Source: Candidatus Thorarchaeota archaeon
GTDB taxonomy: Archaea; Asgardarchaeota; Thorarchaeia; Thorarchaeales; Thorarchaeaceae
Assembly (NCBI GenBank): GCA_046758445.1
Contig: JBHIAE010000060.1
Location: 1 to 16,351 of the forward strand
Length of the DNA stretch: 16,351 nucleotides
Reading direction: 5' to 3'
The translations under genes and the position numbers were made by a program. Shown in pieces: positions 626 through 13,628 of the stretch. The stretch's first letter is position 1. Each line of letters begins with the position of its first letter. The notes under the pieces are model-generated. The model was not told the origin of the DNA and ran no database searches. It was given only the letters and a program-made list of their open reading frames with translations.

Positions 626-823
626 GCCCTGCAACTCTTGGAAGCGCGGTTCATGGCCTAGAACGGATTCCTAAGTGCGTTTTGACAGGAAAACAATAAA
701 TGCGATGATAAGGAAATCCATGGAGTCGAGAAGTGCAAGTCTTTACCTTGTCTAAGGCTGTACAAGTGCAAGGGATGCCAAGCTTGCGAATCTGAGGAAA
801 GATACACAGACGGAGTGACAAAG

Positions 824-2869
824 TTGAGTCGAAAGAAGAAGAAATCCAAGAAGTCGAAGAAGGGCCCATCCAGTCGAAAGCGCACTGCCCCAGATCCGGC
901 TCTCACGGGAGCAGGAGACATTCGACAAGGTACGATTGCGAAGTTCATGCGCAAGAGAACTCAGCTTGTCGGCTTCGAAACCGGACTCAACAAGCATACT
1001 CAGTTCGCAATCGAGTTCCTCGACAATGCGATAGACGCTCTCGAGAGTTGGTGGTGGAAGACCAATAGACGGCCAAGATTAGACGACCAACTCGACCCGA
1101 AGTATATTGAAGAAATACGCTCAAAGATAGAGGGGACTCTTCAAGACTCGATTGCGCTTAGCAAGAAGCTCGAGAAAGACGTGAAGGAAGGCAAGGATGT
1201 TCAGATTCCTCCACGAAGAAAGGAAACTCTGGATGAACGGCTGACGACATTTCGGAAGTTCTTGATTCCGTTCAGGGGCATGATTAGCAGGCGCGAGCCA
1301 CTGTGTGTGATCCAGCTCACTGAGGTCTTCATGCCTGATCTTGTTCCTCTCGATGATGAAGAGGGCTTCAAGGTCTATGAGTTCACTTGCTTCGACAATG
1401 GAGTTGGTATGGTCCCTGATGACCTTGAGAAATATGGCATATACCTTGCATCGAGCAAGTCAGAGAAACTCAGGCAGACAAGAGGTAGTCAGGGATTTGG
1501 TGCACCTTCTGCTTTTAGTGACGCCCAGAACACTACCGGCAAACCAATACTCACTATCACGAAGAGATACACTTCTGACAAGGCAAGTGTGTCAGACTTC
1601 TATACGACGACAGCCAACACAAAGGACTACGTGGGTGGGCCGATTGAAATGGACCTTCCATTCGAGCAAGGCACCTACATTCGGCTTAACTACCTGAACA
1701 TTCAGTATAGGAGAGGTTATGCTGACACGTACTGCCAGATGGCTTCTCTTCTGAACTCACATGTCACCATAGTCTTCATTGATCCGTATGGTGCAGTTCA
1801 TATCTATCCGCGTCGTGTGAAGGAGTTCCCCGAGGAACCAAAGTACGCGCAGCCACATCCCGCCAGCATCCGAATCGGAGAGTTCCAGGACCTGCTGAGA
1901 GAAACTTCTGAGATAGATCTGAGGGGATTCCTCACCAGAGCATTCTGCAGACTAAGTTCCAAGAAGGCGAAGACAATCCTTGATAACGCGAACAAGGACT
2001 TACGCAGACGTCACCAAGACACACTCAGCCCTTCTACACCTGCTGACTCTCTCTCTAAGATGGAGATTGAGCTTCTCTACAAATCCTTCTCCAGTGAAGA
2101 CTATATTGCCCCCCCAACTGATACAGTGGTCCCAGTCGGTGAAGAGGTCTTCGAGCAGACAATTCAGATGGCCTACAATCCTGACTTCGTGACGTCTGTG
2201 ACCAGAAGACCGACATCAGGCAAGGGACTGGCTTTCTCGGTGGAAGTCTGTATCGCCTACGGAGGAGAGATAAGACCGGCTACATCTGCCCCAATGGTGC
2301 TATGGCGATTTGTGAATCGAGTGCCAAAGTTGAGAGACAACAGCGACTGTGCCACATGGAAGGCCACGACCTCGGTCAACTGGAAGAACTACAAGGTCCA
2401 GACTTTCGATAATGGGATTCCACGCGGACCAATCATGGTCTTCATCCATGTCGCTGGTGCATACGTCCATGTCATGTTCAAGGGCCAGAGCAAGCAAGCA
2501 CTCGCCGAAGATGAAGTCCTTCTACGTGAGATCAAGCTTGCACTGGAGGACGCAGGGAGAAGGTTCAGGCGCTACATTACGAGACGAGAGACTGCTCGTC
2601 GGAAGGCAAAGAGAGCTGGAATCCTGGCCATGTATGCTGATCAGTTCGCTCAGAGTCTCGCAGCCATCACCAATGATAATCGCAAGAAGCCTGCCTTTGA
2701 TCCCGAGGTGGTCGCTAGGAAGATACGGGACTCCATCACAGGGGTTGAAACTGCTGACGACCAAGAAGAGACTGAAACTGACGCTATTGGCACAGACCTG
2801 GTCGCAGACGTGCCGCTTGGAGACGGCGAGGAGGAGCTTGCTGAGGTTCCTGCGGAGGGAGGCGACTAG
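824..2869 (+). CDS. top6B: DNA topoisomerase VI subunit B (GHKL ATPase, H2TH, transducer) with a large ATPase-domain insertion, basic N-terminus and acidic C-terminal tail
   Basis: N-box EFLDNAIDA, G1 DNGVGM, ASSK, G2 TRGSQGFG, PHP, transducer RFVNRVP, WKNY (WxxY) and GQSKQAL. TTG 824 is preferred over GTG 815 because SD-like GGAGTGA lies at 812-818. Confidence 0.95.
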   Translation: MSRKKKKSKKSKKGPSSRKRTAPDPALTGAGDIRQGTIAKFMRKRTQLVGFETGLNKHTQFAIEFLDNAIDALESWWWKTNRRPRLDDQLDPKYIEEIRSKIEGTLQDSIALSKKLEKDVKEGKDVQIPPRRKETLDERLTTFRKFLIPFRGMISRREPLCVIQLTEVFMPDLVPLDDEEGFKVYEFTCFDNGVGMVPDDLEKYGIYLASSKSEKLRQTRGSQGFGAPSAFSDAQNTTGKPILTITKRYTSDKASVSDFYTTTANTKDYVGGPIEMDLPFEQGTYIRLNYLNIQYRRGYADTYCQMASLLNSHVTIVFIDPYGAVHIYPRRVKEFPEEPKYAQPHPASIRIGEFQDLLRETSEIDLRGFLTRAFCRLSSKKAKTILDNANKDLRRRHQDTLSPSTPADSLSKMEIELLYKSFSSEDYIAPPTDTVVPVGEEVFEQTIQMAYNPDFVTSVTRRPTSGKGLAFSVEVCIAYGGEIRPATSAPMVLWRFVNRVPKLRDNSDCATWKATTSVNWKNYKVQTFDNGIPRGPIMVFIHVAGAYVHVMFKGQSKQALAEDEVLLREIKLALEDAGRRFRRYITRRETARRKAKRAGILAMYADQFAQSLAAITNDNRKKPAFDPEVVARKIRDSITGVETADDQEETETDAIGTDLVADVPLGDGEEELAEVPAEGGD

Positions 2870-5001
2870 TGTCACGCAAGAAGAAATCGAGGAAAAAGGA
2901 AACCGTTCAAGCCACACTTGGCGAGCTTGTTGAAGGGAAAAGCACGGAAACCAAAAAGGAGCGTGGCAAGAAGTCCACCTCGAAGAAGATCTCTCGCCCG
3001 AAGAAGAGGAGCCCAAGACCCACAACTAGGAAGAAGACTGTCAAGGCGAAAAGAACCCCATCAGCAAAGCCAAAGAAGAAGACTCCCACTCCCGTAAAGG
3101 AAGAAACCGGTCCACCATTGAGTACACTACCCGGAATTGGCAAGAGACTCCAGCAGAGGCTGATTGCTGCAGGCTACGGTTCAGTGGATAGGATATCAAG
3201 ATCCAGAGCCAAGAGTCTCTCCAAAAAGGTAGACGGAGTTAGTCTTGCAGGTGCCAGGAAGCTTGTTGCTGCCGCGAAGGAATCCGTCAAACGTGCGGCG
3301 ATTCCTGAAACCATTGTAGAGAAGGAGTCTGTTCCTGCCGACATCATAGTCGAGGAAACGCCTGCATCACGACTCAGGTTGACCGACCTCCCCGGCGTCG
3401 GAGCGAAGCTAGCTAGAGAGCTCGAGAGGTCAGGATACAACACAGTTGCACGAATATCCCGGTCCAGACCCAGCTCAGTAGCTCGGGTTGTAGATGGACT
3501 TAGCTTGAAGAAGGCCACTGTTCTTGTGGACTCGGCTATTGATCTTGTGCATGAAGCTGAGATTCAGAGCATATCCGGAGTGACTCAACCCAGACCCAAG
3601 CCAAAGGACGTCCCCCCAAAGAAGGCCAAAGTCATACGGGTGAAACCAGAACCAAAAGAACCAACTCCCGAAGAAGTGAAGGTAGTACCTGCAAAGAAGA
3701 AAGTCAGGAAACCGAAGAAGCCTAAGAAGAAGGTAGAGAAACCTCCCCAGAAAGTTGTCAAGAAACGACCAAAACCGAAAAGGACGAAGTCCAGATTGCC
3801 TGTCCCTCCTGCCGTCGAGAAGCTTGCCAAAGATATGAAGAAGAAATGGGCTGCCGCTGAGAAACGGCAAGCAGCAATTAAAGCTGGTGAACTGCCGGAG
3901 GAAGAGATTGCACCACTCAAGGAAACTGTCGAAGTTATCGGAATGACGGCGGATGAAACCACCGCGAGTCTGGTTGAAGTCGCAATGGAGGTTCTCAATG
4001 AGGCCATGACTACCGGGAGACCCGCCTTCGAGATTCCAAGCCGTTCCGGAGACAACATCGTTTGGGATGAAATACGTGATCTTCTCTTGTTGGGGATGAA
4101 GACAGTATCGAGACCATACCATTCGCTTGCGTCAGTCGTAGATGCCACTAGGACCGCTAGAGTGATGGAGATAGTGTATCAACTTCTAAAATCAAATCTA
4201 CACGCTACGAAAAGAGAGGTGTTTTACAGTGACGTCAATCTCTTTCGTGAACAGAAGCGAAGTGACAAGATTGTTGAAGATGTCGCATCAATGCTACACA
4301 CCACGCGTGATAGTGTACACATAGTGGCATCAGCACGCGGCTCTGCTATGGGTCGTGTGGTAATCCGAGATGGTGGCGACACTATTGATCTGACAAGAAT
4401 GGGAACTGGGGGGTGGGCCATAACTCCGTTCCTTGATCAAGTCGAAATACTGGAAAGCGACGCCGAGTTCATCATTATGTCAGAAAAAGATGCGGCTGTC
4501 ATGAGACTAGCTGAGGCCAAGTACTGGAATCGTCAGCCATGCATCGTTCTGACGGGCAAAGGATCAGGAGACATCGCTACACGAGCGTTTCTTAGAATGC
4601 TTGTAAAGGAGTTGGAGATTCCCGCCTTTGCGCTCGTTGATTCTGACCCGTACGGACACTACATCTACTCAGTGTTCCTAAGAGGAAGCAAGCGATTAAG
4701 CTACGAATCACCCTTCATTGCCACTCCCGAGCTGAAACTCCTTGGAGTACTCAGTCGAGATCTGGACGAGTACGACATTCCCAAATCGGTTCGAATTCCT
4801 ATGGAACCCACAGACATCAAACGCGTGAAAGATATGCTCAAGGAGCCATTTGTGAAGGCCAATCGAGACTGGGTGAAGGACCTTCAGCTGATGTTGAAAC
4901 TCAAGGAGAAGGCGGAGATACAGGCTTTCGCCAGCCACAGCTTCGAGTATCTGACGGACGACTACCTTCCGAGGAAGCTTGAAACCGGGGACTGGATTTA
5001 G
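2869..5001 (+). CDS. top6A: DNA topoisomerase VI subunit A (Spo11 homologue) with a ~355-aa N-terminal extension (two HhH domains and two Lys/Pro-rich tracts)
   Basis: Core from about aa 360: FEIPSRSGDNI, TKREVFY (putative catalytic Tyr453 at 4225-4227), TOPRIM SEKDA, TGKGxxDxATR, DSDPYG (DxD), KAEIQA. The GTG overlaps the top6B TAG by 1 nt, with GGAGG at 2858-2862. Confidence 0.95.
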   Translation: MSRKKKSRKKETVQATLGELVEGKSTETKKERGKKSTSKKISRPKKRSPRPTTRKKTVKAKRTPSAKPKKKTPTPVKEETGPPLSTLPGIGKRLQQRLIAAGYGSVDRISRSRAKSLSKKVDGVSLAGARKLVAAAKESVKRAAIPETIVEKESVPADIIVEETPASRLRLTDLPGVGAKLARELERSGYNTVARISRSRPSSVARVVDGLSLKKATVLVDSAIDLVHEAEIQSISGVTQPRPKPKDVPPKKAKVIRVKPEPKEPTPEEVKVVPAKKKVRKPKKPKKKVEKPPQKVVKKRPKPKRTKSRLPVPPAVEKLAKDMKKKWAAAEKRQAAIKAGELPEEEIAPLKETVEVIGMTADETTASLVEVAMEVLNEAMTTGRPAFEIPSRSGDNIVWDEIRDLLLLGMKTVSRPYHSLASVVDATRTARVMEIVYQLLKSNLHATKREVFYSDVNLFREQKRSDKIVEDVASMLHTTRDSVHIVASARGSAMGRVVIRDGGDTIDLTRMGTGGWAITPFLDQVEILESDAEFIIMSEKDAAVMRLAEAKYWNRQPCIVLTGKGSGDIATRAFLRMLVKELEIPAFALVDSDPYGHYIYSVFLRGSKRLSYESPFIATPELKLLGVLSRDLDEYDIPKSVRIPMEPTDIKRVKDMLKEPFVKANRDWVKDLQLMLKLKEKAEIQAFASHSFEYLTDDYLPRKLETGDWI
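3118..3543 (+). repeat. Tandem duplicated 55-aa HhH (RadA N-terminal-like) domain within top6A
   Basis: Copy 1 at 3118-3282 (LSTLPGIGKRLQQRLIAAGYGSVDRISRSR...VDGVSL) and copy 2 at 3379-3543 (LTDLPGVGAKLARELERSGYNTVARISRSR...VDGLSL) are 26/55 identical without gaps by my count. Confidence 0.85.
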
Positions 5002-5103: not shown

Positions 5104-6018
5104 TTGGTCAAGTCAAAGCTTGATGGCATTGAAGTCATTGATGGACATGCACACTTCATAACATACAACACTGTCAAGGAATGGTTCTCTGATCCGGAGA
5201 GACTTAGGCAGGCTCAGGAGCGCGTAGCCTATAGAACCGACATGACTGAATTCAACATTCCTGATGAACCGTGGGACACAGGAGAGATGTGGATTCAAGA
5301 GCTAGACAAATACGGGATAACAGCCATTGGGATGATGGTTGGTCCCGAGAGTCGGGAAGAATTCCTCGAAACGCGGAAAAGATACCCCCGGAGATTCATG
5401 GGGTACGCGAATGTCAATCCTGCGGATGAGAATGCGGTCGAAGTTGTGAAGAATGCGGGAAGTGATGGATTCCAGGGAATCAAGCTTTACCCCAGCTCTT
5501 GGGACTTCCATGTATATGACAAGAGAGTGTACCCAATATACGAGGAGGCTCTCAGGCAGAATCTGCTTGTGATCCTTCATTTCGGAATCACAATTGGCAC
5601 ACAGGCCAATCTCCGCTTTGGTAACCCGTTGGATGTACAGAAGCCAGCTCAGGACTTCCCAGACTTGAACTTCATGATAGCTCACTTTGGTGCAGGATTC
5701 TTTCGCGAGATTCTGATGCTTTTCTATCAGACCAACAATGTGGTTGTGGACTCTAGTGGAAGCAACAGCTGGATGCAGTATTTACCCTATGACCTAACCA
5801 TTACAAAGATCTACGAGAAGGCGCTAAGAGCCGGAGGATCTTGCAGGATTGTGTTCGGCACTGATTCGTCCTTCTTCCCTCGCGGATTCAGATTCAATGT
5901 CCTTCAGGAGCAGTACAACGCGGTCAAATCGCTCTGTCCTCAGCTATGCTACTCTGAAGAAGACGTTGACCTGATTTTTCGAGGCAACATTCTGCGGCTG
6001 ACAGGTTTTGAGCACTAG
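5104..6018 (+). CDS. Amidohydrolase-superfamily metal-dependent hydrolase (Amidohydro_2-like), substrate unknown
   Basis: IDGHAH (DxHxH), FQGIKL, LHFG, IAHFG, IVFGTDS and C-terminal IFRGNILRL. GGAGG lies at 5092-5096 before the TTG. Confidence 0.88.
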   Translation: MVKSKLDGIEVIDGHAHFITYNTVKEWFSDPERLRQAQERVAYRTDMTEFNIPDEPWDTGEMWIQELDKYGITAIGMMVGPESREEFLETRKRYPRRFMGYANVNPADENAVEVVKNAGSDGFQGIKLYPSSWDFHVYDKRVYPIYEEALRQNLLVILHFGITIGTQANLRFGNPLDVQKPAQDFPDLNFMIAHFGAGFFREILMLFYQTNNVVVDSSGSNSWMQYLPYDLTITKIYEKALRAGGSCRIVFGTDSSFFPRGFRFNVLQEQYNAVKSLCPQLCYSEEDVDLIFRGNILRLTGFEH

Positions 6019-6050: not shown

Positions 6051-7358
6051 CTATGCCTTCCGTATCTTCTTGTCGAGACCCTTGAGTCTCTTCTTCTCGT
6101 CGGCCTGTCGGTACTTTTCAGCTGCTTCTTGGTACTTCGACAGTGCCTCTCGAGTGTTGCCTGCCTTTGCTAGTCCGTCACCCTCCGATTCCAGAGTCTT
6201 GCCCCATTCAACGTAGCACTCTCGCACTTTTGCCGCACAACGGGCTCGCTTCTTTGCATCAGTTGAGAACATGTAGAGCTCGCGAGCTTTTCGATACTGA
6301 ACAATAGCCCACTCGTATTCGTGTGCCTTCTGATGGTTCTCACCCTGTTCAAAGTGGTTGTTTGCCATGGCATCGTATCCCAGGTCAGTTCTCTTCGTGC
6401 ACTCGTCGACCATCTTCTGATTGTCAGCTCTCTCATACAGTGTCTTTGCCTTCTCGAATGCTTCTATGGCCACTTCGTACTCCTTCTCCCTCAACTTGGC
6501 ATCTCCGTCTTCGAGTCTGGCCCTACCCATTGAATCATATACATAGTCAGGATACTCGAACTCATCACCGCTAAGAGAGACCCCACAGCTAGGACATGAC
6601 GGCGTATCAAGTTCGACCATTGGAGTAGCAACGGAAACTTTGGTCGGAGTTCCGACCACCACATCGATGAAGTCCTTAGATGTGACTCCTCTGCCTTCTG
6701 GGAAGAGGTGTGATACCGCCTCTCGAGTTTCGTCGTCTCTACCGTCTGGAAAGAGATGGTCAATCACCACATCTGTTGCAAAGTCTATCTCATCAGACAT
6801 TACCCTGGGAGGTTCGATTTCCTTGAAGGGCATGCCCACCTTTATCTCAGGTTCTTCTCCAACACCCATTTCCTCCCAGCTGAGCCCCTCTGTACGGTCC
6901 TCCAGAACGACAGCGTCTGGTGGTATCCCAGAATCAGGAACATCCATCATGGCCGCTTGATTAATGGCTCCAGAACTAGAATCCTCATTCTCAACTGGTT
7001 TGACGAGGGTTTCATCCACTTCCCACGAGAGGTCGCCCTCCGGGGGTACAGCAGTGGCTTCCTCGTTAACGGCTGGTGCTTCGGTGACTTCAGGTTCGGC
7101 GAGTTCTGGCAGCTCGGTTTCGGGCAGTGTGTCTGCAGTGTCAGCAGAAACGTCTTGCTCTGGAATGTCTTCAAGCTCTGACTCTGCCAGTAATATGCTA
7201 CTGTTGTCTTGGACTTCAGCATTTGGCGTAGCTCCAGTTTCTGCAGGTGTGTCGGGAGATTCATGTCCCGTGGCCAGTCTTGAACCACACCCCATACAGA
7301 AAGTCGATCCCCTTCTGACTTTCTTGCCACATTCCGGGCATTCCATACTCTCTTCCAT
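6051..7358 (-). CDS. Zinc-ribbon / acidic disordered linker / TPR-like helical-repeat protein
   Basis: N-terminal CPECG-x9-CMGCG, a ~200-aa E/D/P-rich linker, a lone CPSCG, and C-terminal A-x3-[FY]-x2-A-x3-Y helical repeats. Start is ATG 7358 (alternatives GTG 7370, ATG 7346). Confidence 0.85.
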   Translation of the reverse strand: MEESMECPECGKKVRRGSTFCMGCGSRLATGHESPDTPAETGATPNAEVQDNSSILLAESELEDIPEQDVSADTADTLPETELPELAEPEVTEAPAVNEEATAVPPEGDLSWEVDETLVKPVENEDSSSGAINQAAMMDVPDSGIPPDAVVLEDRTEGLSWEEMGVGEEPEIKVGMPFKEIEPPRVMSDEIDFATDVVIDHLFPDGRDDETREAVSHLFPEGRGVTSKDFIDVVVGTPTKVSVATPMVELDTPSCPSCGVSLSGDEFEYPDYVYDSMGRARLEDGDAKLREKEYEVAIEAFEKAKTLYERADNQKMVDECTKRTDLGYDAMANNHFEQGENHQKAHEYEWAIVQYRKARELYMFSTDAKKRARCAAKVRECYVEWGKTLESEGDGLAKAGNTREALSKYQEAAEKYRQADEKKRLKGLDKKIRKA

Positions 7359-7516
7359 GGTGCGAACCACTGATATGTTCTGGAAGCAGTCTGACCTTCT
7401 TCAGTTTCAACTGCCGTTGTTGAGGGGTATCTAGTCCATATGAACAATTTTCGTACAAGCATTGTTCCTAGTCGATGCTAGGCATCCCTTCTGCCTTCAG
7501 ACAACATAAGATCCAT

Positions 7517-8134
7517 TCAGTAGAGTACTATGTACGTTGGCCATGTGATGAGGACTCCCAGTATGACCCCGGCCGCGGCTTGGAGGAAGCTGTGTTGCCG
7601 AAGCCTGATTCTAGACCAGATGACGAGAGCCCACAGAATCACAACTGGAAGCGCCATCCATCCGTAAACCGCCAACAGGGCAGTTCCAGGACCACCAACC
7701 CCGGCTCCGTGAACTGATATCTTGCTTCTTTGGTTGACAATCAACACTCCGAGCGTGACGTTGAAGTATGCAGCCGCCAGGACTTGCAGTATCAGACAAC
7801 TAGTGAAGCCGAAAATTGCGATAGCGAATATGTAGCAAAGTAACGAGAACGCTAAGAACTTCGACCTGCTCTCTTGTACTGACACGTCGAGGTCCGTCCG
7901 CCCCTTCCATGCCGCGTAAACGATGGGCGCTATTGGCGCGACTACCATGATGATGACAACGACTAGCAGGGCAGATACGAAGTCAAGCATCGGACCAAGC
8001 CCGATCGGAGAGGCGTAGGCCATAATGGCCCCCACGTAGAGGTTCACGAGAGGAGCAGGTGTTAGACGGGAGATGATTCGAGCCAAGATGACTCCAGAGC
8101 CAGTCAATTCCAGAGTTTCGTCGTGGTATCTCAA
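7517..8134 (-). CDS. Multi-pass membrane protein, PAP2-like phosphoesterase family
   Basis: About 6-7 hydrophobic segments. KISVHG and WSRIRLRQHSFLQAAAG resemble the PAP2 C2 (SxH) and C3 (SRx5H) motifs. The C1 motif is not evident. Confidence 0.65.
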   Translation of the reverse strand: MRYHDETLELTGSGVILARIISRLTPAPLVNLYVGAIMAYASPIGLGPMLDFVSALLVVVIIMVVAPIAPIVYAAWKGRTDLDVSVQESRSKFLAFSLLCYIFAIAIFGFTSCLILQVLAAAYFNVTLGVLIVNQRSKISVHGAGVGGPGTALLAVYGWMALPVVILWALVIWSRIRLRQHSFLQAAAGVILGVLITWPTYIVLY

Positions 8135-8658: not shown

Positions 8659-9609
8659 ATGGCTCAATTGTGCTTGACCTTGACTTCAGAAGCATTCAGA
8701 ACCAGGGATCTCACGAAACTCTACGGTTCAACCTTGGCGTTGGACAAGGTCACGGTTAAGGCTCCCAAGAAAGCTGTAGGATTGTTGGGTCCCAATGGTG
8801 CCGGTAAGACTACACTAATTCGAATCCTCATGGGCATAATACGTCACTCGTCTGGCTCGGGAGGGGTGCTTGGCCTAGATTTCAAAGACTCAGTTCAAGA
8901 GATACGTGATCGTGTGGGATACTCACCCGAGTTCACGCCAATCATTCCGGAAGTCAGTGCCATGAAGTACGTCACATTTATGGGTAGGCTTTCAGGGTTG
9001 CCGTCTGTAGAAGCCGCGCAGAGAGCACATGATACGCTTCACTACGTGGGTCTAGACGAGGAAAGATATCGTCCGTTGAAGGAATTCAGCGCGGGCATGA
9101 TGCAGAAATGTAAGCTGGCTGCAGCACTTGTTCATGATCCAGAACTGGTGATTCTAGATGAACCGACGGACGGTCTAGACCCAACTGGTCGTCACCAGAT
9201 GCTTGAACTGATTCAGAAACTCTACAGGGAAGAAGAAAAGAGTCTGATAGTGTCGTCCCATCTTCTGTTTGATGTTGAGAAGGTGTGTGACTGGGTTGTT
9301 ATACTTGGTAGAGGACAAGTTGTTACCACTGGCAACATGGACGAGCTTCTTGCCGACACCACAGGAATGCTGAGGTTGAAGATTGCCGGAGATGCAGAAG
9401 AGTTTGCGAAGAAGCTGACGGCACGCGGGCTAGATACCCAGGTTGAAGGTGCCTTTGTAGATGTGAAGAAGTCAGACGGCACCGAGATGATAGTCCTCGA
9501 AGAAGTGAACAAGGACTCTTCGGTGAGCCTCCGCTACATGGGACGACGAACGCAGACGCTGGAGGACGTGTTTGTGTCATTGGTTGAAGGGAGGAGTGAC
9601 ATGGAATGA
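8659..9609 (+). CDS. ABC-2 type transporter ATP-binding protein
   Basis: Walker A GPNGAGKT, signature FSAGM, Walker B VILDEPT, H-loop SSH. The true start may be TTG 8674 or 8680. Confidence 0.95.
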   Translation: MAQLCLTLTSEAFRTRDLTKLYGSTLALDKVTVKAPKKAVGLLGPNGAGKTTLIRILMGIIRHSSGSGGVLGLDFKDSVQEIRDRVGYSPEFTPIIPEVSAMKYVTFMGRLSGLPSVEAAQRAHDTLHYVGLDEERYRPLKEFSAGMMQKCKLAAALVHDPELVILDEPTDGLDPTGRHQMLELIQKLYREEEKSLIVSSHLLFDVEKVCDWVVILGRGQVVTTGNMDELLADTTGMLRLKIAGDAEEFAKKLTARGLDTQVEGAFVDVKKSDGTEMIVLEEVNKDSSVSLRYMGRRTQTLEDVFVSLVEGRSDME

Positions 9610-10607
9610 GCGAGCAAGAAACTGATGACAGCTATGTCCGGAAGTTTGGCTTCAGACGTTTCACTGGCGTCAGAAAGGCCAGATGGTACAGGGTCATGAC
9701 AGTGGCATGGTTCAACCTTAGAGAGGCAGTACGTAGGTCCGGTTTCACCAAGCTGCTCCTCGTGTTCATGTTATTCACAATCTTGGCGCAGGATATAGTA
9801 ATCATTGCCCTGTCAACGTTCTCTCCTTTTATTGGCCCCGGATTGGACGTTACAGAGCTATTCCGCCACTCATATGCAGACTCAGTCATTGGCATGGTAT
9901 CTCTGATCAATCGTGTGAGTGTGATCCCTCCCGACATCTTCGGACCTTTCGGACTCATGCTACCTCTGTCGCTCACTTCAGGCGGAATCAGCTTCATGTG
10001 GTTGCTGTTGATGGCTATGGTGGGTGGAGGTCTAATTGCAGATGATAGACTTCACCAGACAACAGAAGTCTACTTTGCTAGGATTTCCAGGTTCGAGTAT
10101 GTCATTGGAAAGCTAACTAGTCTAATCCTCTTCTCAGTCATCGTCATTATGCTCCCGGCAGTTGTTCAATACTTCCTGTTGAACTACGGCCTAGGCACAG
10201 ATGTCTTCGCCAGCCTCGACTTGCTCTTATGGGCGGTTGGTTTCACACTTCTGGCAGCCTTGATCGTTAGTGTCTTGACAATAGCCCTTTCAAGCCTGAC
10301 AAAAAGAAGAGCCGTTGCAACCCTCACGCTATTCATTGCTGCAATCATCATGTCAAGCTTCTACACAGCAGTCGCTCTCGCATGGAACCAATCCGAATCA
10401 CTCCTCATCCTTATGGACTTCATTGGAGCTCTATCTCTGTTTGGTGCAATGATGCTCGGGTACTCCGAGGTTACAGTTAATGGATACAACGTGTACTTCT
10501 TCAATGAGATAGGTGTAGAAGCGATCATGGTGGTTGGTGTTGTAGCTGCCACTCTCCTTCTTGGGATTCTGGCCCTTGTACTGACTCTATTCAGGAGGGA
10601 CAACTAA
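9606..10607 (+). CDS. ABC-2 type transporter permease
   Basis: Multiple TM segments, motif GGGLIADDR...YFARISRFEYVIGK, and an ATGA overlap with the upstream ATPase. Confidence 0.88.
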   Translation: MSEQETDDSYVRKFGFRRFTGVRKARWYRVMTVAWFNLREAVRRSGFTKLLLVFMLFTILAQDIVIIALSTFSPFIGPGLDVTELFRHSYADSVIGMVSLINRVSVIPPDIFGPFGLMLPLSLTSGGISFMWLLLMAMVGGGLIADDRLHQTTEVYFARISRFEYVIGKLTSLILFSVIVIMLPAVVQYFLLNYGLGTDVFASLDLLLWAVGFTLLAALIVSVLTIALSSLTKRRAVATLTLFIAAIIMSSFYTAVALAWNQSESLLILMDFIGALSLFGAMMLGYSEVTVNGYNVYFFNEIGVEAIMVVGVVAATLLLGILALVLTLFRRDN

Positions 10608-11548
10608 TGGCGGCCATAGTGATCAAGGAGGCATCCAAGCGCTACGGCGAGGTCGTCGCGATTAGCAGCTTCAACATGGCTGTCCGAAAGGGCTCAATTA
10701 CGGGGTTCGTCGGTCCCAACGGTGCGGGAAAGACAACCACCATCAGGCTCATCACAGGGCTCGCCCGACCAGATAGCGGAAGCGCACAAGTGTTTGGTGA
10801 GAACCCCTTCGACAATATTCGCGTGAAGGAAGAGATTGGCTATGTATCGGAGCATGACGATCTCTACCCATGGGCAACTGTTAGAAGTTCAGTCAAGATG
10901 CTTGCCCGTATCAACCGACCGGGAGGCAAGACCGATGAGGCCGTTGATTGGGCAATCTCAAATGTTGGAATGAGCAAATTCACTGAGAGGAAGATATCTA
11001 CACTGTCAAAGGGAATGAAACAGAGGACAAAGATTGCTGCGGCGTTGGCCCATTCGCCGAAGCTGCTGGTCCTCGACGAACCTCTTGGTGGTCTGGACCC
11101 CCTGGGTCGCCGAACCATAATGGAACTTCTTCAAGAGATCAATGCAGAGAGAGGTGTCACAATCTTGATCTCAAGTCATGTCCTCGAGGAACTAGAACAT
11201 CTAGCAAACAGGATTACTCTCATACATCGGGGACAGACCGTCGCGGAGGGCAATCCCCACAGGATAAGGAGTCTGCTGTATCAGTATCCCCATGAGATTC
11301 AGTTTCATTCAACACCAGAGAATATGAAACGAATCGCGAGCGGACTAATGGAGCTTGATGGACTTGTAAGGTCCTTGACTTTGTCCGAAGTGAAGGATGG
11401 GCTGATACATTGCACAGTTGTGACACCTCGACCTGAAATGTTCTACGACGAGCTAGTGCGCATTGCAGTGAAGAAGAAAGCTCCGATCCTTCGGGTCGAC
11501 ACACTCTCTGAAAGTGTAGAGAGGCTGTTTGAGTTCCTTGTATCGTGA
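10607..11548 (+). CDS. ABC-2 type transporter ATP-binding protein
   Basis: GPNGAGKT, LSKGMKQR, LVLDEP, SSH, and a TAATG overlap with the upstream permease. Confidence 0.95.
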   Translation: MAAIVIKEASKRYGEVVAISSFNMAVRKGSITGFVGPNGAGKTTTIRLITGLARPDSGSAQVFGENPFDNIRVKEEIGYVSEHDDLYPWATVRSSVKMLARINRPGGKTDEAVDWAISNVGMSKFTERKISTLSKGMKQRTKIAAALAHSPKLLVLDEPLGGLDPLGRRTIMELLQEINAERGVTILISSHVLEELEHLANRITLIHRGQTVAEGNPHRIRSLLYQYPHEIQFHSTPENMKRIASGLMELDGLVRSLTLSEVKDGLIHCTVVTPRPEMFYDELVRIAVKKKAPILRVDTLSESVERLFEFLVS

Positions 11549-12360
11549 GGTGGAAATGGTTGAATGTGGAATCAGTTCAAACATCGCCTGGTCGAACTGG
11601 GATTGGAGGCTCTCTTCGCAATGTGCTAACGAGAGGGGCCTATGTGTTCTGGATCTTCATAACGGCCTTTGTCAAGGACCGCAAGAGTCACCTCTTGATT
11701 ATCCTTGGACTGCTTCCGGCTGCGGTCCTGTTATCCACAGGGATGGTTCCCAATGATCCGTTTCCTGCCCGTATGTTCTTCGTGGACCTCACCCAGTCGC
11801 TGTACATATCGTTGCTCATCCCTCTCTTCGGACTGTTACTAGGAACAGCGGCTCTGACTGACGAGATTGAATCGCACACGATCGTTCAGCTTGTGAGTCG
11901 ACCAGTGAGAAGAGTAGAGATACTGGTCTGGCGCTATCTAGCAACTATTGTCGCTGGGACACTTGTGGCAATCATTGCTACGAGCGGCTTCTACCTGACC
12001 ATTAGTCTAACAGCTCCGATACCAGTAGAGATGCTCACTGGCTTTTGGGGAGTATGTTTTGTTTGCACTGCTGTCTATTGTTCAATCTTCATTCTCCTTG
12101 GCGTAGCAATCAAAAGACCTCTCATCTGGGGTGTGGTGATTACGCTCTATGAGCAGCTCCTTGGAGTTCTTGCGGTATTCTTTGGTGGAGCTGCATTCTC
12201 ACTGTCTGGGCACATACTCCATGTTGGGACCCAGCTTGTTGACTACCCTTACTCGATACAAGACTGGACCCCATTCAACTCTGGGCTGCTGCTTGTAGTA
12301 ATAACCATAGCAAGTATCGTCATCTCGACAATCATCTTTCGACAGAAGGATTTGGCCTAG
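11545..12360 (+). CDS. ABC-2 type transporter permease
   Basis: About 6 TM segments, LTDEIESHTIVQLVSRPVRRVEILVWRY, C-terminal FRQKDL. The start may be TTG 11560 (GAGGTG at 11547-11552). Confidence 0.88.
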   Translation: MRWKWLNVESVQTSPGRTGIGGSLRNVLTRGAYVFWIFITAFVKDRKSHLLIILGLLPAAVLLSTGMVPNDPFPARMFFVDLTQSLYISLLIPLFGLLLGTAALTDEIESHTIVQLVSRPVRRVEILVWRYLATIVAGTLVAIIATSGFYLTISLTAPIPVEMLTGFWGVCFVCTAVYCSIFILLGVAIKRPLIWGVVITLYEQLLGVLAVFFGGAAFSLSGHILHVGTQLVDYPYSIQDWTPFNSGLLLVVITIASIVISTIIFRQKDLA

Positions 12361-12492: not shown

Positions 12493-12575
12493 CTAGAAAG
12501 ACGACTACAGCATGTTCACGTGCTTGGCGAAATCTACGCGCAATGATTGTCAGGCATTTGAGGGAGGTCTACAGG

Positions 12576-13628
12576 ATGTCACGACGGAAGAAGGAAGCTG
12601 ATAAAGAGCAGGAAGAGGACGTAGATTACGAGGATTTTGAGCAAGGAGAGTTGGAAGAAGCCGCTCCTGGCATCGGTGAAGAAGGGGCGTTGGGTCTGGA
12701 TGTCACTGACCTCCCGGGTGTTGGCCCGGCAATTGCGAAGCGGCTCTCTGAATCCGGGTACAGGAGTGTCGAGGCCATTGCAGTGGCATCGCCCGCGGAA
12801 CTTGCGGCTGCAGGTTCCATAGGAGAAACGACTTCAACCAAGATAATCAAAGCTGCCCGTGAGATGCTTGACATTGGTTTCGAAACCGCTGATCAGCTTC
12901 TTGAGAGAAGGAGAGCAGCCGGAAGGATCACAACCGGCTCCAACGCCCTCGATGAACTCTTTGCAGGGGGGCTTGAAACCCAAAGCATCACAGAAATGTA
13001 CGGCTCTTTCAGATCCGGAAAGACTCAGATGGCCCATCAGCTTGCAGTCAACGTACAGAGAGATCCAGAAGATGGTGGCCTCTCGGCCACAGCGATATAC
13101 GTGGACACAGAAGGCACATTCAGGCCAGAGCGCTTGGTGGACATGGCTGAAGCCTACGGCATGGATCCGGCCAAGGTGTTGAAGAATGTTGTCTGGGCAC
13201 GAGCCTACAACTCAGACCACCAGATTCTTCTATGCGATCAAGCGATGGAAATGGCGCCTGACAATAATGCGAAACTGCTAGTACTGGACTCAGTGACAAG
13301 TCATTTCAGGGCAGAGTATACCGGCCGAGGGACGTTGGCTGCAAGGCAACAGAAGCTGAACAAGCACCTGCACCATCTACAGAGAGGTGCCGAGATCAAC
13401 AATTTGGCGGTCTACATAACGAACCAGGTTATGTCGAGACCTGATGCTTTCTTCGGAGATCCGACAACACCAGTTGGCGGACATGTTCTCGCTCACGTTC
13501 CTCAGACACGTTGCTATCTCAGGAAGTCGAAAGGTGAGAGACGGATCTGTAGGCTTGTGGACTCACCAAATCTGCCCGAAGGGGAGGCAGTCTTCACAGT
13601 CACGAAAGACGGAATCAGAGACGTGTGA
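12576..13628 (+). CDS. radA: DNA repair and recombination protein RadA
   Basis: N-terminal HhH domain (DLPGVG...SGY), FETA polymerisation motif, Walker [21 protein letters not shown], Walker [49 protein letters not shown] 12576 is preferred over 12543 because GGAGGT lies at 12563-12568. Confidence 0.97.

Follow-up and report, generated by a model that had tools for sequence, protein, structure and literature searches.

The window analysed here, a stretch of 16,351 nucleotides (nt) from a Candidatus Thorarchaeota archaeon (contig JBHIAE010000060.1 of assembly GCA_046758445.1), is contig C60 of a 3.25-Mb genome that is 92.7% complete. In databases, the homologues of its genes carry Thorarchaeota labels. 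The window carries the genes for both subunits of a topoisomerase VI (Topo VI), i.e., top6B and, overlapping its end, a top6A gene whose product of 710 amino acids (aa) is referred to here as the long form. In this protein, an N-terminal arm of about 360 aa with two helix-hairpin-helix (HhH) domains precedes an Asgard-type catalytic core (Table 1). The arm is conserved throughout one Thorarchaeota family.

Architecture of the long-form Top6A

The preliminary description of this DNA, made from its letters and open reading frames, had placed the start of the catalytic core near aa 360. In agreement with this, the NCBIfam Top6A models align only from about aa 355–380. Pfam assigned TP6A_N to aa 427–485 (70.1 bits; cut-off 26) and a Toprim domain to aa 534–704 (181.3 bits). 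Y453 (within KREVFY), E539 and the DxD motif D591/D593 were invariant in an alignment of 45 orthologues; thus, the catalytic Tyr and the Toprim acids are intact, as had been stated. A 5Y-CAP domain with the catalytic Tyr, a Toprim domain with Glu and DxD, and an adjacent Top6B identify the protein as a member of the Top6A/Spo11 family. Long-form Topo VI is predicted to perform ATP-dependent strand passage or cleavage. The canonical archaeal Top6A proteins of S. shibatae (2zbk_A), M. jannaschii (1d3y_A) and M. mazei (2q2e_A) share the 5Y-CAP and Toprim domains, the catalytic Tyr, the acidic residues and the gene for the A2B2 partner, but unlike the long form, their solved chains of 301–389 aa are armless.

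The partner subunit matched the NCBIfam model top6B with 341.6 bits (cut-off 274) as well as Pfam Topo-VIb_trans. Its motifs were recognized by eye: the N-box EFLDNAIDA, the G1-box DNGVG, the G2-box GSQGFG and, in the transducer domain, WKNY (WKxY motif). The N-terminal tail of Top6B (aa 1–35) is Lys-rich with a net charge of +11, the C-terminal tail (aa 625–684, 60 aa) is acidic with a net charge of −15, and alignment to M. mazei 2q2e_B revealed an insertion of about 95 aa (aa 78–172) in the interval between the N-box and the G1-box. An interaction of the acidic C-terminal tail with the basic Top6A arm is possible. Since Top6B comprises 700 aa in a sister-family genome with an armless Top6A, the unusual features of Top6B are independent of the arm.

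From its N-terminus, the arm runs through a basic tract, HhH domain 1, a linker, HhH domain 2 and another basic tract to a final helix, and its overall net charge is +57. Both HhH domains that had been proposed were recovered in the genome scan as Pfam HHH_5 matches above the cut-off of 27 bits, at 3118–3282 (31.9 bits) and 3376–3531 (28.1 bits). An AlphaFold2 (AF2) model of Top6A was built on 45 orthologues, and the HhH pair was also modelled separately. Each modelled module contains four helices of at least four residues plus a 3-residue helical turn, with a predicted local distance difference test (pLDDT) score of about 88 per module in the Top6A model and of 85–95 in the model of the pair. 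Both the above-threshold scores and the five-helix fold with two hairpins assign the modules to HHH_5/(HhH)2. Foldseek, used only to name the fold, was run with the model of the two-domain arm and returned E. coli NusA (8y5l), RadA/Rad51 and Topo V chains, of which only NusA passed an E-value of 0.001. RadA/Rad51 chains made up most of the list, which also held tandem SAM domains, and the best local fit was that to RadA chain 2zuc_A (55 columns, root-mean-square deviation of 1.3 Å). The weak global scores are due to the flexibility of the linker. As modelled, the arm modules have the generic (HhH)2 fold. The helix that ends the arm is also covered by the alignment with the armless 420-aa orthologue of genome G311, which represents a sister family of the same order. 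It plausibly corresponds to the N-terminal helix specific to Asgard archaea and eukaryotes that was described by Brinkmeier et al. 2022 (PMC9665070).

The arm is very likely translated. The GTG start codon of top6A is overlapped by the TAG stop codon of top6B, and GGAGGGAGG, 6 nt upstream of the GTG, is a plausible Shine-Dalgarno (SD) site; these are the translation signals to which the preliminary description had pointed. Since the homologues begin with MSRKKK or MARKKK at the equivalent position, the GTG start is supported.

Table 1. Features of the long-form Topo VI locus and related loci of the same genome. Positions refer to the window unless a contig is named.
Feature	Position	Strand	Residues	Description
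top6B	815–2869	+	684 aa	partner ATPase subunit; Pfam Topo-VIb_trans, NCBIfam top6B
top6A, long form	2869–5001	+	710 aa	N-terminal arm and Asgard-type catalytic core
top6A start context	2854–2871	+		SD-like GGAGGGAGG at 2854–2862, TAG at 2867–2869, GTG at 2869–2871; read from sequence
Basic tract 1	2869–3108	+	aa 1–80	31 Lys and Arg, net charge +24; predicted disordered
Tip motif TVQATLGELV	2902–2931	+	aa 12–21	PIP-box-like; Q14, T16 and L17 invariant
HhH domain 1	3118–3297	+	aa 84–143	(HhH)2 five-helix module; Pfam HHH_5; AF2 pLDDT about 87–92
Inter-HhH linker		+	aa 145–163	predicted disordered; aa 144–166 with net charge −5
HhH domain 2	3367–3576	+	aa 167–236	(HhH)2 module with long last helix; Pfam HHH_5; AF2 pLDDT about 85–95
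Basic tract 2	3577–3804	+	aa 237–312	Lys/Pro-rich, 30 Lys and Arg, net charge +24; predicted disordered (AF2: aa 237–300)
Extra N-terminal helix	3808–3882	+	aa 314–338	helix in the AF2 model
Top6A catalytic core	3949–4998	+	aa 361–710	5Y-CAP with Y453 (nt 4225–4227); Toprim with E539, D591 and D593
Amidohydrolase gene	5104–6018			in the top6A–radA interval
Zn-ribbon/TPR protein and protein without Pfam match	6051–8134	−	439 aa and 205 aa	convergent gene pair
Two ABC-transporter ATPase/permease pairs	8659–12360			four genes in the top6A–radA interval
radA	12543–13628	+	361 aa	own N-terminal HhH at 12699–12863; syntenic neighbour, outside the feature
Second Topo VI operon	contig C3, L003:6436–9004		508 aa and 351 aa	top6B and top6A, canonical
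L32e	contig C1, L007:1483–2277		264 aa	N-terminal HhH and Lys-rich linker
Rpo6/RpoK	contig C43, L008:1375–2097		about 223–240 aa	N-terminal HhH and Lys-rich linker

Conservation of the arm and origin of the core

Among 5.8 billion proteins searched, there were 831 homologues with an E-value of at most 0.001. The combination of HhH domains with Top6A, in proteins of about 600–855 aa, is common to the best 120 of the 831, and the named ones among these 120 are nearly all labelled Thorarchaeota. The preliminary description had proposed a survey of relatives, and the long form was found as an open frame of 658–954 aa in all 31 genomes of the window's family that are at least 90% complete, which represent 16 genera. 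Two HhH copies were present in 116 of 122 Top6A proteins, three copies in two, four in three and seven in one. The HhH domains show many invariant columns across orthologues, and for 117 of the 118 orthologues considered, the arm has a net charge between +18 and +74. The 420-aa orthologue of G311 aligns only from aa 295; neither the HhH modules nor the tip motif of the arm is present in it, and it gave no match to the arm before that residue. Nor was this HhH type found in the other Top6A representatives or the named Asgard orthologues. Since G311, these representatives and the named Asgard orthologues lack the HhH modules, the acquisition of the arm dates to roughly the base of one family, which has retained it.

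The core of the long form is 61–68% identical to the Top6A proteins of about 395–436 aa that are its best armless matches, the named ones of which come from Baldr-, Hel-, Odin-, Jord-, Loki- and Hodarchaea. The phylogenetic tree groups the long forms as one monophyletic branch (100/100) within the clade of named Asgard Top6A, which is sister (100/99) to a clade holding a diatom Top6A. Few database clusters carry organism names, and most unnamed representative sequences were left unlabelled. The short Thorarchaeota copies (100/99) are placed far from the long forms and adjoin a Marsarchaeota sequence. By its position with Asgard orthologues next to eukaryotic Top6A, the long form belongs to the conserved Asgard-type clade. 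Thus, the notion that it is an odd paralogue was rejected: it represents the conserved orthologue of Asgard archaea, and the outlying copy is the short one. The placement of both agrees with Feng et al. 2025 (PMC12680538), where the conserved Asgard Top6A was closest to eukaryotic Top6A/Spo11, while a second copy in some clades, and a third in Thorarchaeia, were related to those of other archaea. A motif insertion common to this clade and eukaryotes is given there as its signature. Compared to the Asgard-type Top6A already known (PMC12680538, PMC9665070), the long form has the similar core, the extra N-terminal helix and the adjacent top6B in common. It differs from the best matches of other Asgard lineages, which are without HhH, by about 310 added residues that comprise the tip motif, the two basic tracts and the two HhH modules.

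In the clade that adjoins the eukaryotic sequence, two Top6A representatives, P0128 (461 aa) and P0135 (470 aa), have an N-terminal extension of about 100 aa that looks ubiquitin-like, the Pfam ubiquitin match being weak and below threshold (E-value of 0.0023). Several other Asgard families commonly have Top6A open frames of about 470 aa. For eight representatives of 830–950 aa (P0142, P0145, P0164, P0168, P0187, P0198, P0203 and P0216), the match to the Top6A core is split in two stretches, and these proteins may contain inteins or represent fusions.

A second, canonical top6A, for which a check had been advised, exists in the genome together with its own top6B on contig C3, and the assumption that the long form belongs to the only Topo VI of the genome was accordingly rejected. 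The second Top6A is 29% identical to the long-form core and, among solved structures, best matches that of M. mazei (2q2e_A; 217 bits). A gene for Fen1 is located about 5 kb upstream of this operon (C3:64730–65788). A scan of the phylum yielded 2–4 Top6A matches (mostly 2–3) in most genomes of the family and one in most other families.

Kinship of the HhH modules, the radA neighbourhood and the N-terminal tip

A profile was built from the HhH domains of 122 Top6A arms. In the window genome, it scored the N-terminal domain of ribosomal protein L32e highest (73.9 bits), followed by the N-terminal domain of Rpo6/RpoK (60.9 bits) and the RadA N-domain (47.8 bits), with all else at 21.6 bits or less. 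The order L32e, Rpo6/RpoK, RadA was repeated in five other genomes. L32e with one to three N-terminal HhH modules was found in 14 of 14 genomes of the family and in 0 of 56 other Asgard genomes searched, and Rpo6/RpoK with the module was likewise found in genomes of the family only. The profile of the HhH pair gave 4–19 matches per family genome versus 0–2 elsewhere. One genus (G389:C14, G389:C34) carries seven HhH domains on Top6A and three on L32e, with 17–19 profile matches genome-wide, among them open reading frames (ORFs) of 2,200–2,475 aa. Since the NCBIfam L32e model NF009401 matches the HhH regions of Top6A and RadA, the model itself includes the N-terminal HhH. The long N-terminus of Thorarchaeota Rpo6 has been noted before and was called a helix-loop-helix fragment (PMC13257274, 2026).

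The preliminary description had compared the second HhH copy with the N-terminal domain of the RadA encoded in the window. A recount agreed with the 14 identities in 26 positions given there, and this identity reflects a hairpin motif common to the whole HhH family. A maximum-likelihood tree of 41 HhH domains, which has only 63 columns and is read cautiously, placed HhH1 and HhH2 of the window with the modules of two-copy Top6A proteins and of L32e (98/92), while the RadA N-domains formed a clade of their own (94/85; 96% of the bootstrap trees). Only the seven-copy array of the one genus adjoins the RadA clade. Thus, on these 63 columns, the HhH copies of the window do not group with RadA N-domains, a grouping that would have been expected for a derivation from radA. 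The N-terminal (HhH)2 of RadA/Rad51 shares the HHH_5 family and the fold, but it is not the closest relative of the Top6A modules. The closest sequence relatives are the HhH-bearing L32e (NF009401) and the extended Rpo6 (PMC13257274), which have the same N-terminal combination of HhH and basic linker but are different host proteins without the tip motif.

In the window, radA lies 7.5 kb downstream of top6A, and the seven unrelated genes in between include two that are encoded on the other strand. Of the 31 family genomes, about 21 have radA 2.5–7.5 kb downstream of top6A on the same strand; in most of the others, the locus is divided between contigs, and three show rearrangements. The ancestral layout consists of top6B and top6A, two convergent genes (for the Zn-ribbon/TPR protein and the 205-aa protein) and then radA. 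This convergent pair was present in three of four loci checked, including that of the sister-family genome, and the fourth held its first member only. The amidohydrolase and ABC-transporter genes are absent in two of four related loci, a third has the amidohydrolase gene only, and they therefore look like additions to the ancestral layout. Because the two convergent genes separate top6A and radA, radA is a separate transcription unit. G311 keeps the same top6BA–radA layout with an armless Top6A, and the neighbourhood is therefore independent of the arm and due to inheritance at the level of the order rather than to an operon. No linkage of top6A and radA was seen in four more distant Asgard genomes. 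Thus, the synteny with radA to which the preliminary description had drawn attention is real and conserved within the order, but it predates the arm, joins separate transcription units and does not indicate a coupling to RadA.

The sole conserved element of basic tract 1 is the motif at its tip, with the consensus TVQxTLG[DE]LV, in which Q14, T16 and L17 were invariant in 20 diverse orthologues. The pattern Qxx[LIMV]xx followed by two hydrophobic residues occurs within the first 60 aa of 84 of 109 full-length homologues. It resembles the PCNA-interacting protein (PIP) box: Q14 provides the Gln at position 1 and L17 the Leu/Ile/Met at position 4. The aromatic residues at positions 7 and 8 are lacking: this protein has L20-V21 there, and its homologues have LV, VL, VI, VV or LI. 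The archaeal PIP consensus peptide KTTQSTLDSFFK is known from its complex with A. fulgidus PCNA (1RXM) (PMC4929162). The tip resembles this peptide and the C-terminal PIP motifs encoded in the genome itself, QSSLTDFF of Fen1 and QSTLVDFM of a second ORF. With canonical PIP peptides such as KTTQSTLDSFFK, it shares Q-x-T-L-x-[DE]-h-h at a protein terminus and the basic flanks, and the model would place it in the PIP pocket, but where these carry an aromatic pair (F-F in the Fen1 of this genome), the Top6A tip is aliphatic (L-V, V-L or V-I). The second ORF (C23:12478–13572, minus strand) encodes 365 aa and ends in the canonical motif; together with that of Fen1, it shows the standard clamp-binding motifs of the organism. 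The tip motif is absent from L32e and Rpo6/RpoK.

A model of the complex between the tip and the PCNA of the same genome, which is encoded on contig C24 at L014:1501–2262, reached a score of 0.79, compared to 0.13 for the best control, a score that speaks for likeness to known complexes and not for binding. Of 80 solved complexes, 58 reached the mark applied to such models, as did 2 of 110 mismatched pairs. The model runs agreed in at least 80% of the contacts, and the pLDDT of the partner was at least 51. Tip residues 11–22 were modelled in contact with PCNA residues 38–47, 123–128 and 243–250. We interpret residues 123–128 and 243–250 as the interdomain loop and C-terminus of PCNA, and the contacts as those of the PIP pocket.

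Possible functions of the arm

The best reading of the arm, which we consider probable, is that of a built-in DNA tether of Topo VI, possibly also a tether to the clamp. (HhH)2 domains are non-specific binders of the DNA backbone, and Topo V and chimeric polymerases owe processivity and salt resistance to HhH arrays. The Asgard-type, eukaryote-related Top6A acquired the flexible arm in one Thorarchaeota family, its two (HhH)2 modules having arisen by internal duplication. Going by the domain family and the charge, the arm would bind DNA and hold the A2B2 enzyme on the duplex through sequence-independent backbone contacts, and the expected benefit of this tethering would be a higher local concentration, processivity or salt tolerance. 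According to the complex model, the tip may in addition bind to the PCNA clamp, and long-form Topo VI would in that case be located at replication forks. The second, armless Topo VI of the same genome would then do other work, i.e., a division of labour between the paralogues may exist. Methanopyrus kandleri Topo V (type IC) likewise combines a topoisomerase with tandem (HhH)2 domains, and by analogy the same added DNA affinity is plausible here. However, Topo V belongs to an unrelated catalytic family, and its array of 12 units with repair activities is C-terminal, whereas the array of Top6A is N-terminal, usually has two units and is interleaved with Lys-rich disorder. Eukaryotic Topo II, with its basic C-terminal domain, offers another parallel to the way in which the arm would work; the long form belongs neither to this family nor to that of Topo V.

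Several observations weigh against a DNA and clamp tether. The arm of the variant with seven HhH domains has a net charge of −9, and the basic tracts are thus not indispensable. The same module is present on the ribosomal protein L32e, so RNA binding or a general cellular role is possible. The tip has L-V instead of the F-F of a canonical PIP box, and since PIP–PCNA complexes have been solved abundantly, the good score of the model may reflect likeness only. A more far-reaching version is more doubtful: a type IIB topoisomerase tethered to the replication clamp by a degenerate, aliphatic PIP-like tip on a DNA-binding leash of about 350 aa, such that supercoil relaxation or decatenation would travel with the fork, with the armless Topo VI left to other needs. 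Here, the arm would have come from a wave across the whole family that added one HhH and Lys-rich module to the machineries of replication (Top6A), transcription (Rpo6/RpoK) and translation (L32e).

The main rival to the DNA tether, rather unlikely in our judgement, is that of a generic HhH and Lys-rich tag used throughout the family for a property of the cell (nucleoid or condensate association, RNA binding or ionic adaptation), neither a tether specific to Topo VI nor a link to the clamp. The restriction of HhH-bearing L32e and Rpo6/RpoK to this family, the excess of profile matches in its genomes and the N-terminal HhH built into NF009401 argue for it, and the parallel high counts on Top6A, on L32e and genome-wide in the genus with seven copies suggest co-expansion. 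Since the module recurs on L32e and Rpo6/RpoK, selection may have acted on a family-level property and not on one specific to Topo VI. A tag of this kind would be compatible with DNA tethering of the Topo VI copy, however, and the two readings overlap; moreover, the tip motif is specific to Top6A, on which at least two HhH copies are kept nearly everywhere. Alternatively, the modules might recruit an unknown protein partner rather than DNA, as do the tandem AR domains of NusA, which bind proteins, and SAM-like folds. NusA was the top Foldseek match and tandem SAM domains were listed, but the strongly basic flanking tracts, the occurrence of the module on three unrelated nucleic-acid machines and a copy number of 2 to 7, typical of avidity for a polymer, make this improbable.

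Still less can be said for an arm that couples Topo VI cleavage to RadA-dependent recombination, with HhH domains derived from or mimicking the RadA N-domain and a functional link to the nearby radA. The common Pfam family, the predominance of RadA/Rad51 chains among the Foldseek matches, the proximity of radA in two thirds or so of the family genomes and the seven-copy array next to the RadA clade are in its favour. Against it stand the grouping of the window's modules with L32e apart from the RadA clade, the higher profile scores of L32e and Rpo6/RpoK in all six genomes, the two convergent genes that make radA a transcription unit of its own, the synteny in the armless G311 and its lack in the more distant Asgard genomes. 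The domain tree, the profile scores and G311 led us to reject both derivation from RadA and coupling to it. Least credible of all is an artefact, i.e., an untranslated arm and a real product initiated from an internal Met close to the core. Apart from the GTG start codon, which would fit it, this is contradicted by a frame that is open in 31 of 31 genomes, by the invariant columns of the HhH domains, by the invariant tip motif only 12 residues from the proposed start and by the SD-like site with the stop/start overlap. Thus, of the two possibilities raised in the preliminary description, the DNA-tethered Topo VI is retained as the best explanation, while the recombination link is not.

The preliminary description had also held the architecture to be undescribed, and no paper on the arm was found in the literature on Topo VI, Top6A and Asgard archaea or Thorarchaeota with HhH. 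Reviews and surveys of Topo VI/Spo11 do not mention the arm, and HhH domains are mentioned neither by Feng et al. 2025 (PMC12680538) nor by Brinkmeier et al. 2022 (PMC9665070). Public records label the proteins "helix-hairpin-helix domain-containing protein" or "SPO11".

With its confinement to a single family of Thorarchaeota, the arm is uninformative on the origin of meiotic Spo11 or of Spo11–Rad51 coupling, and showing this confinement removes an attractive but unsupported reading. Little is known of how cells bring Topo VI to DNA or to the replisome. A naturally tethered Topo VI would be a comparative system, with an armless paralogue alongside, an HhH dosage from 2 to 7 and a testable tip that may dock on the clamp, and it would allow one to ask what DNA affinity and recruitment to the fork do for a type IIB enzyme.

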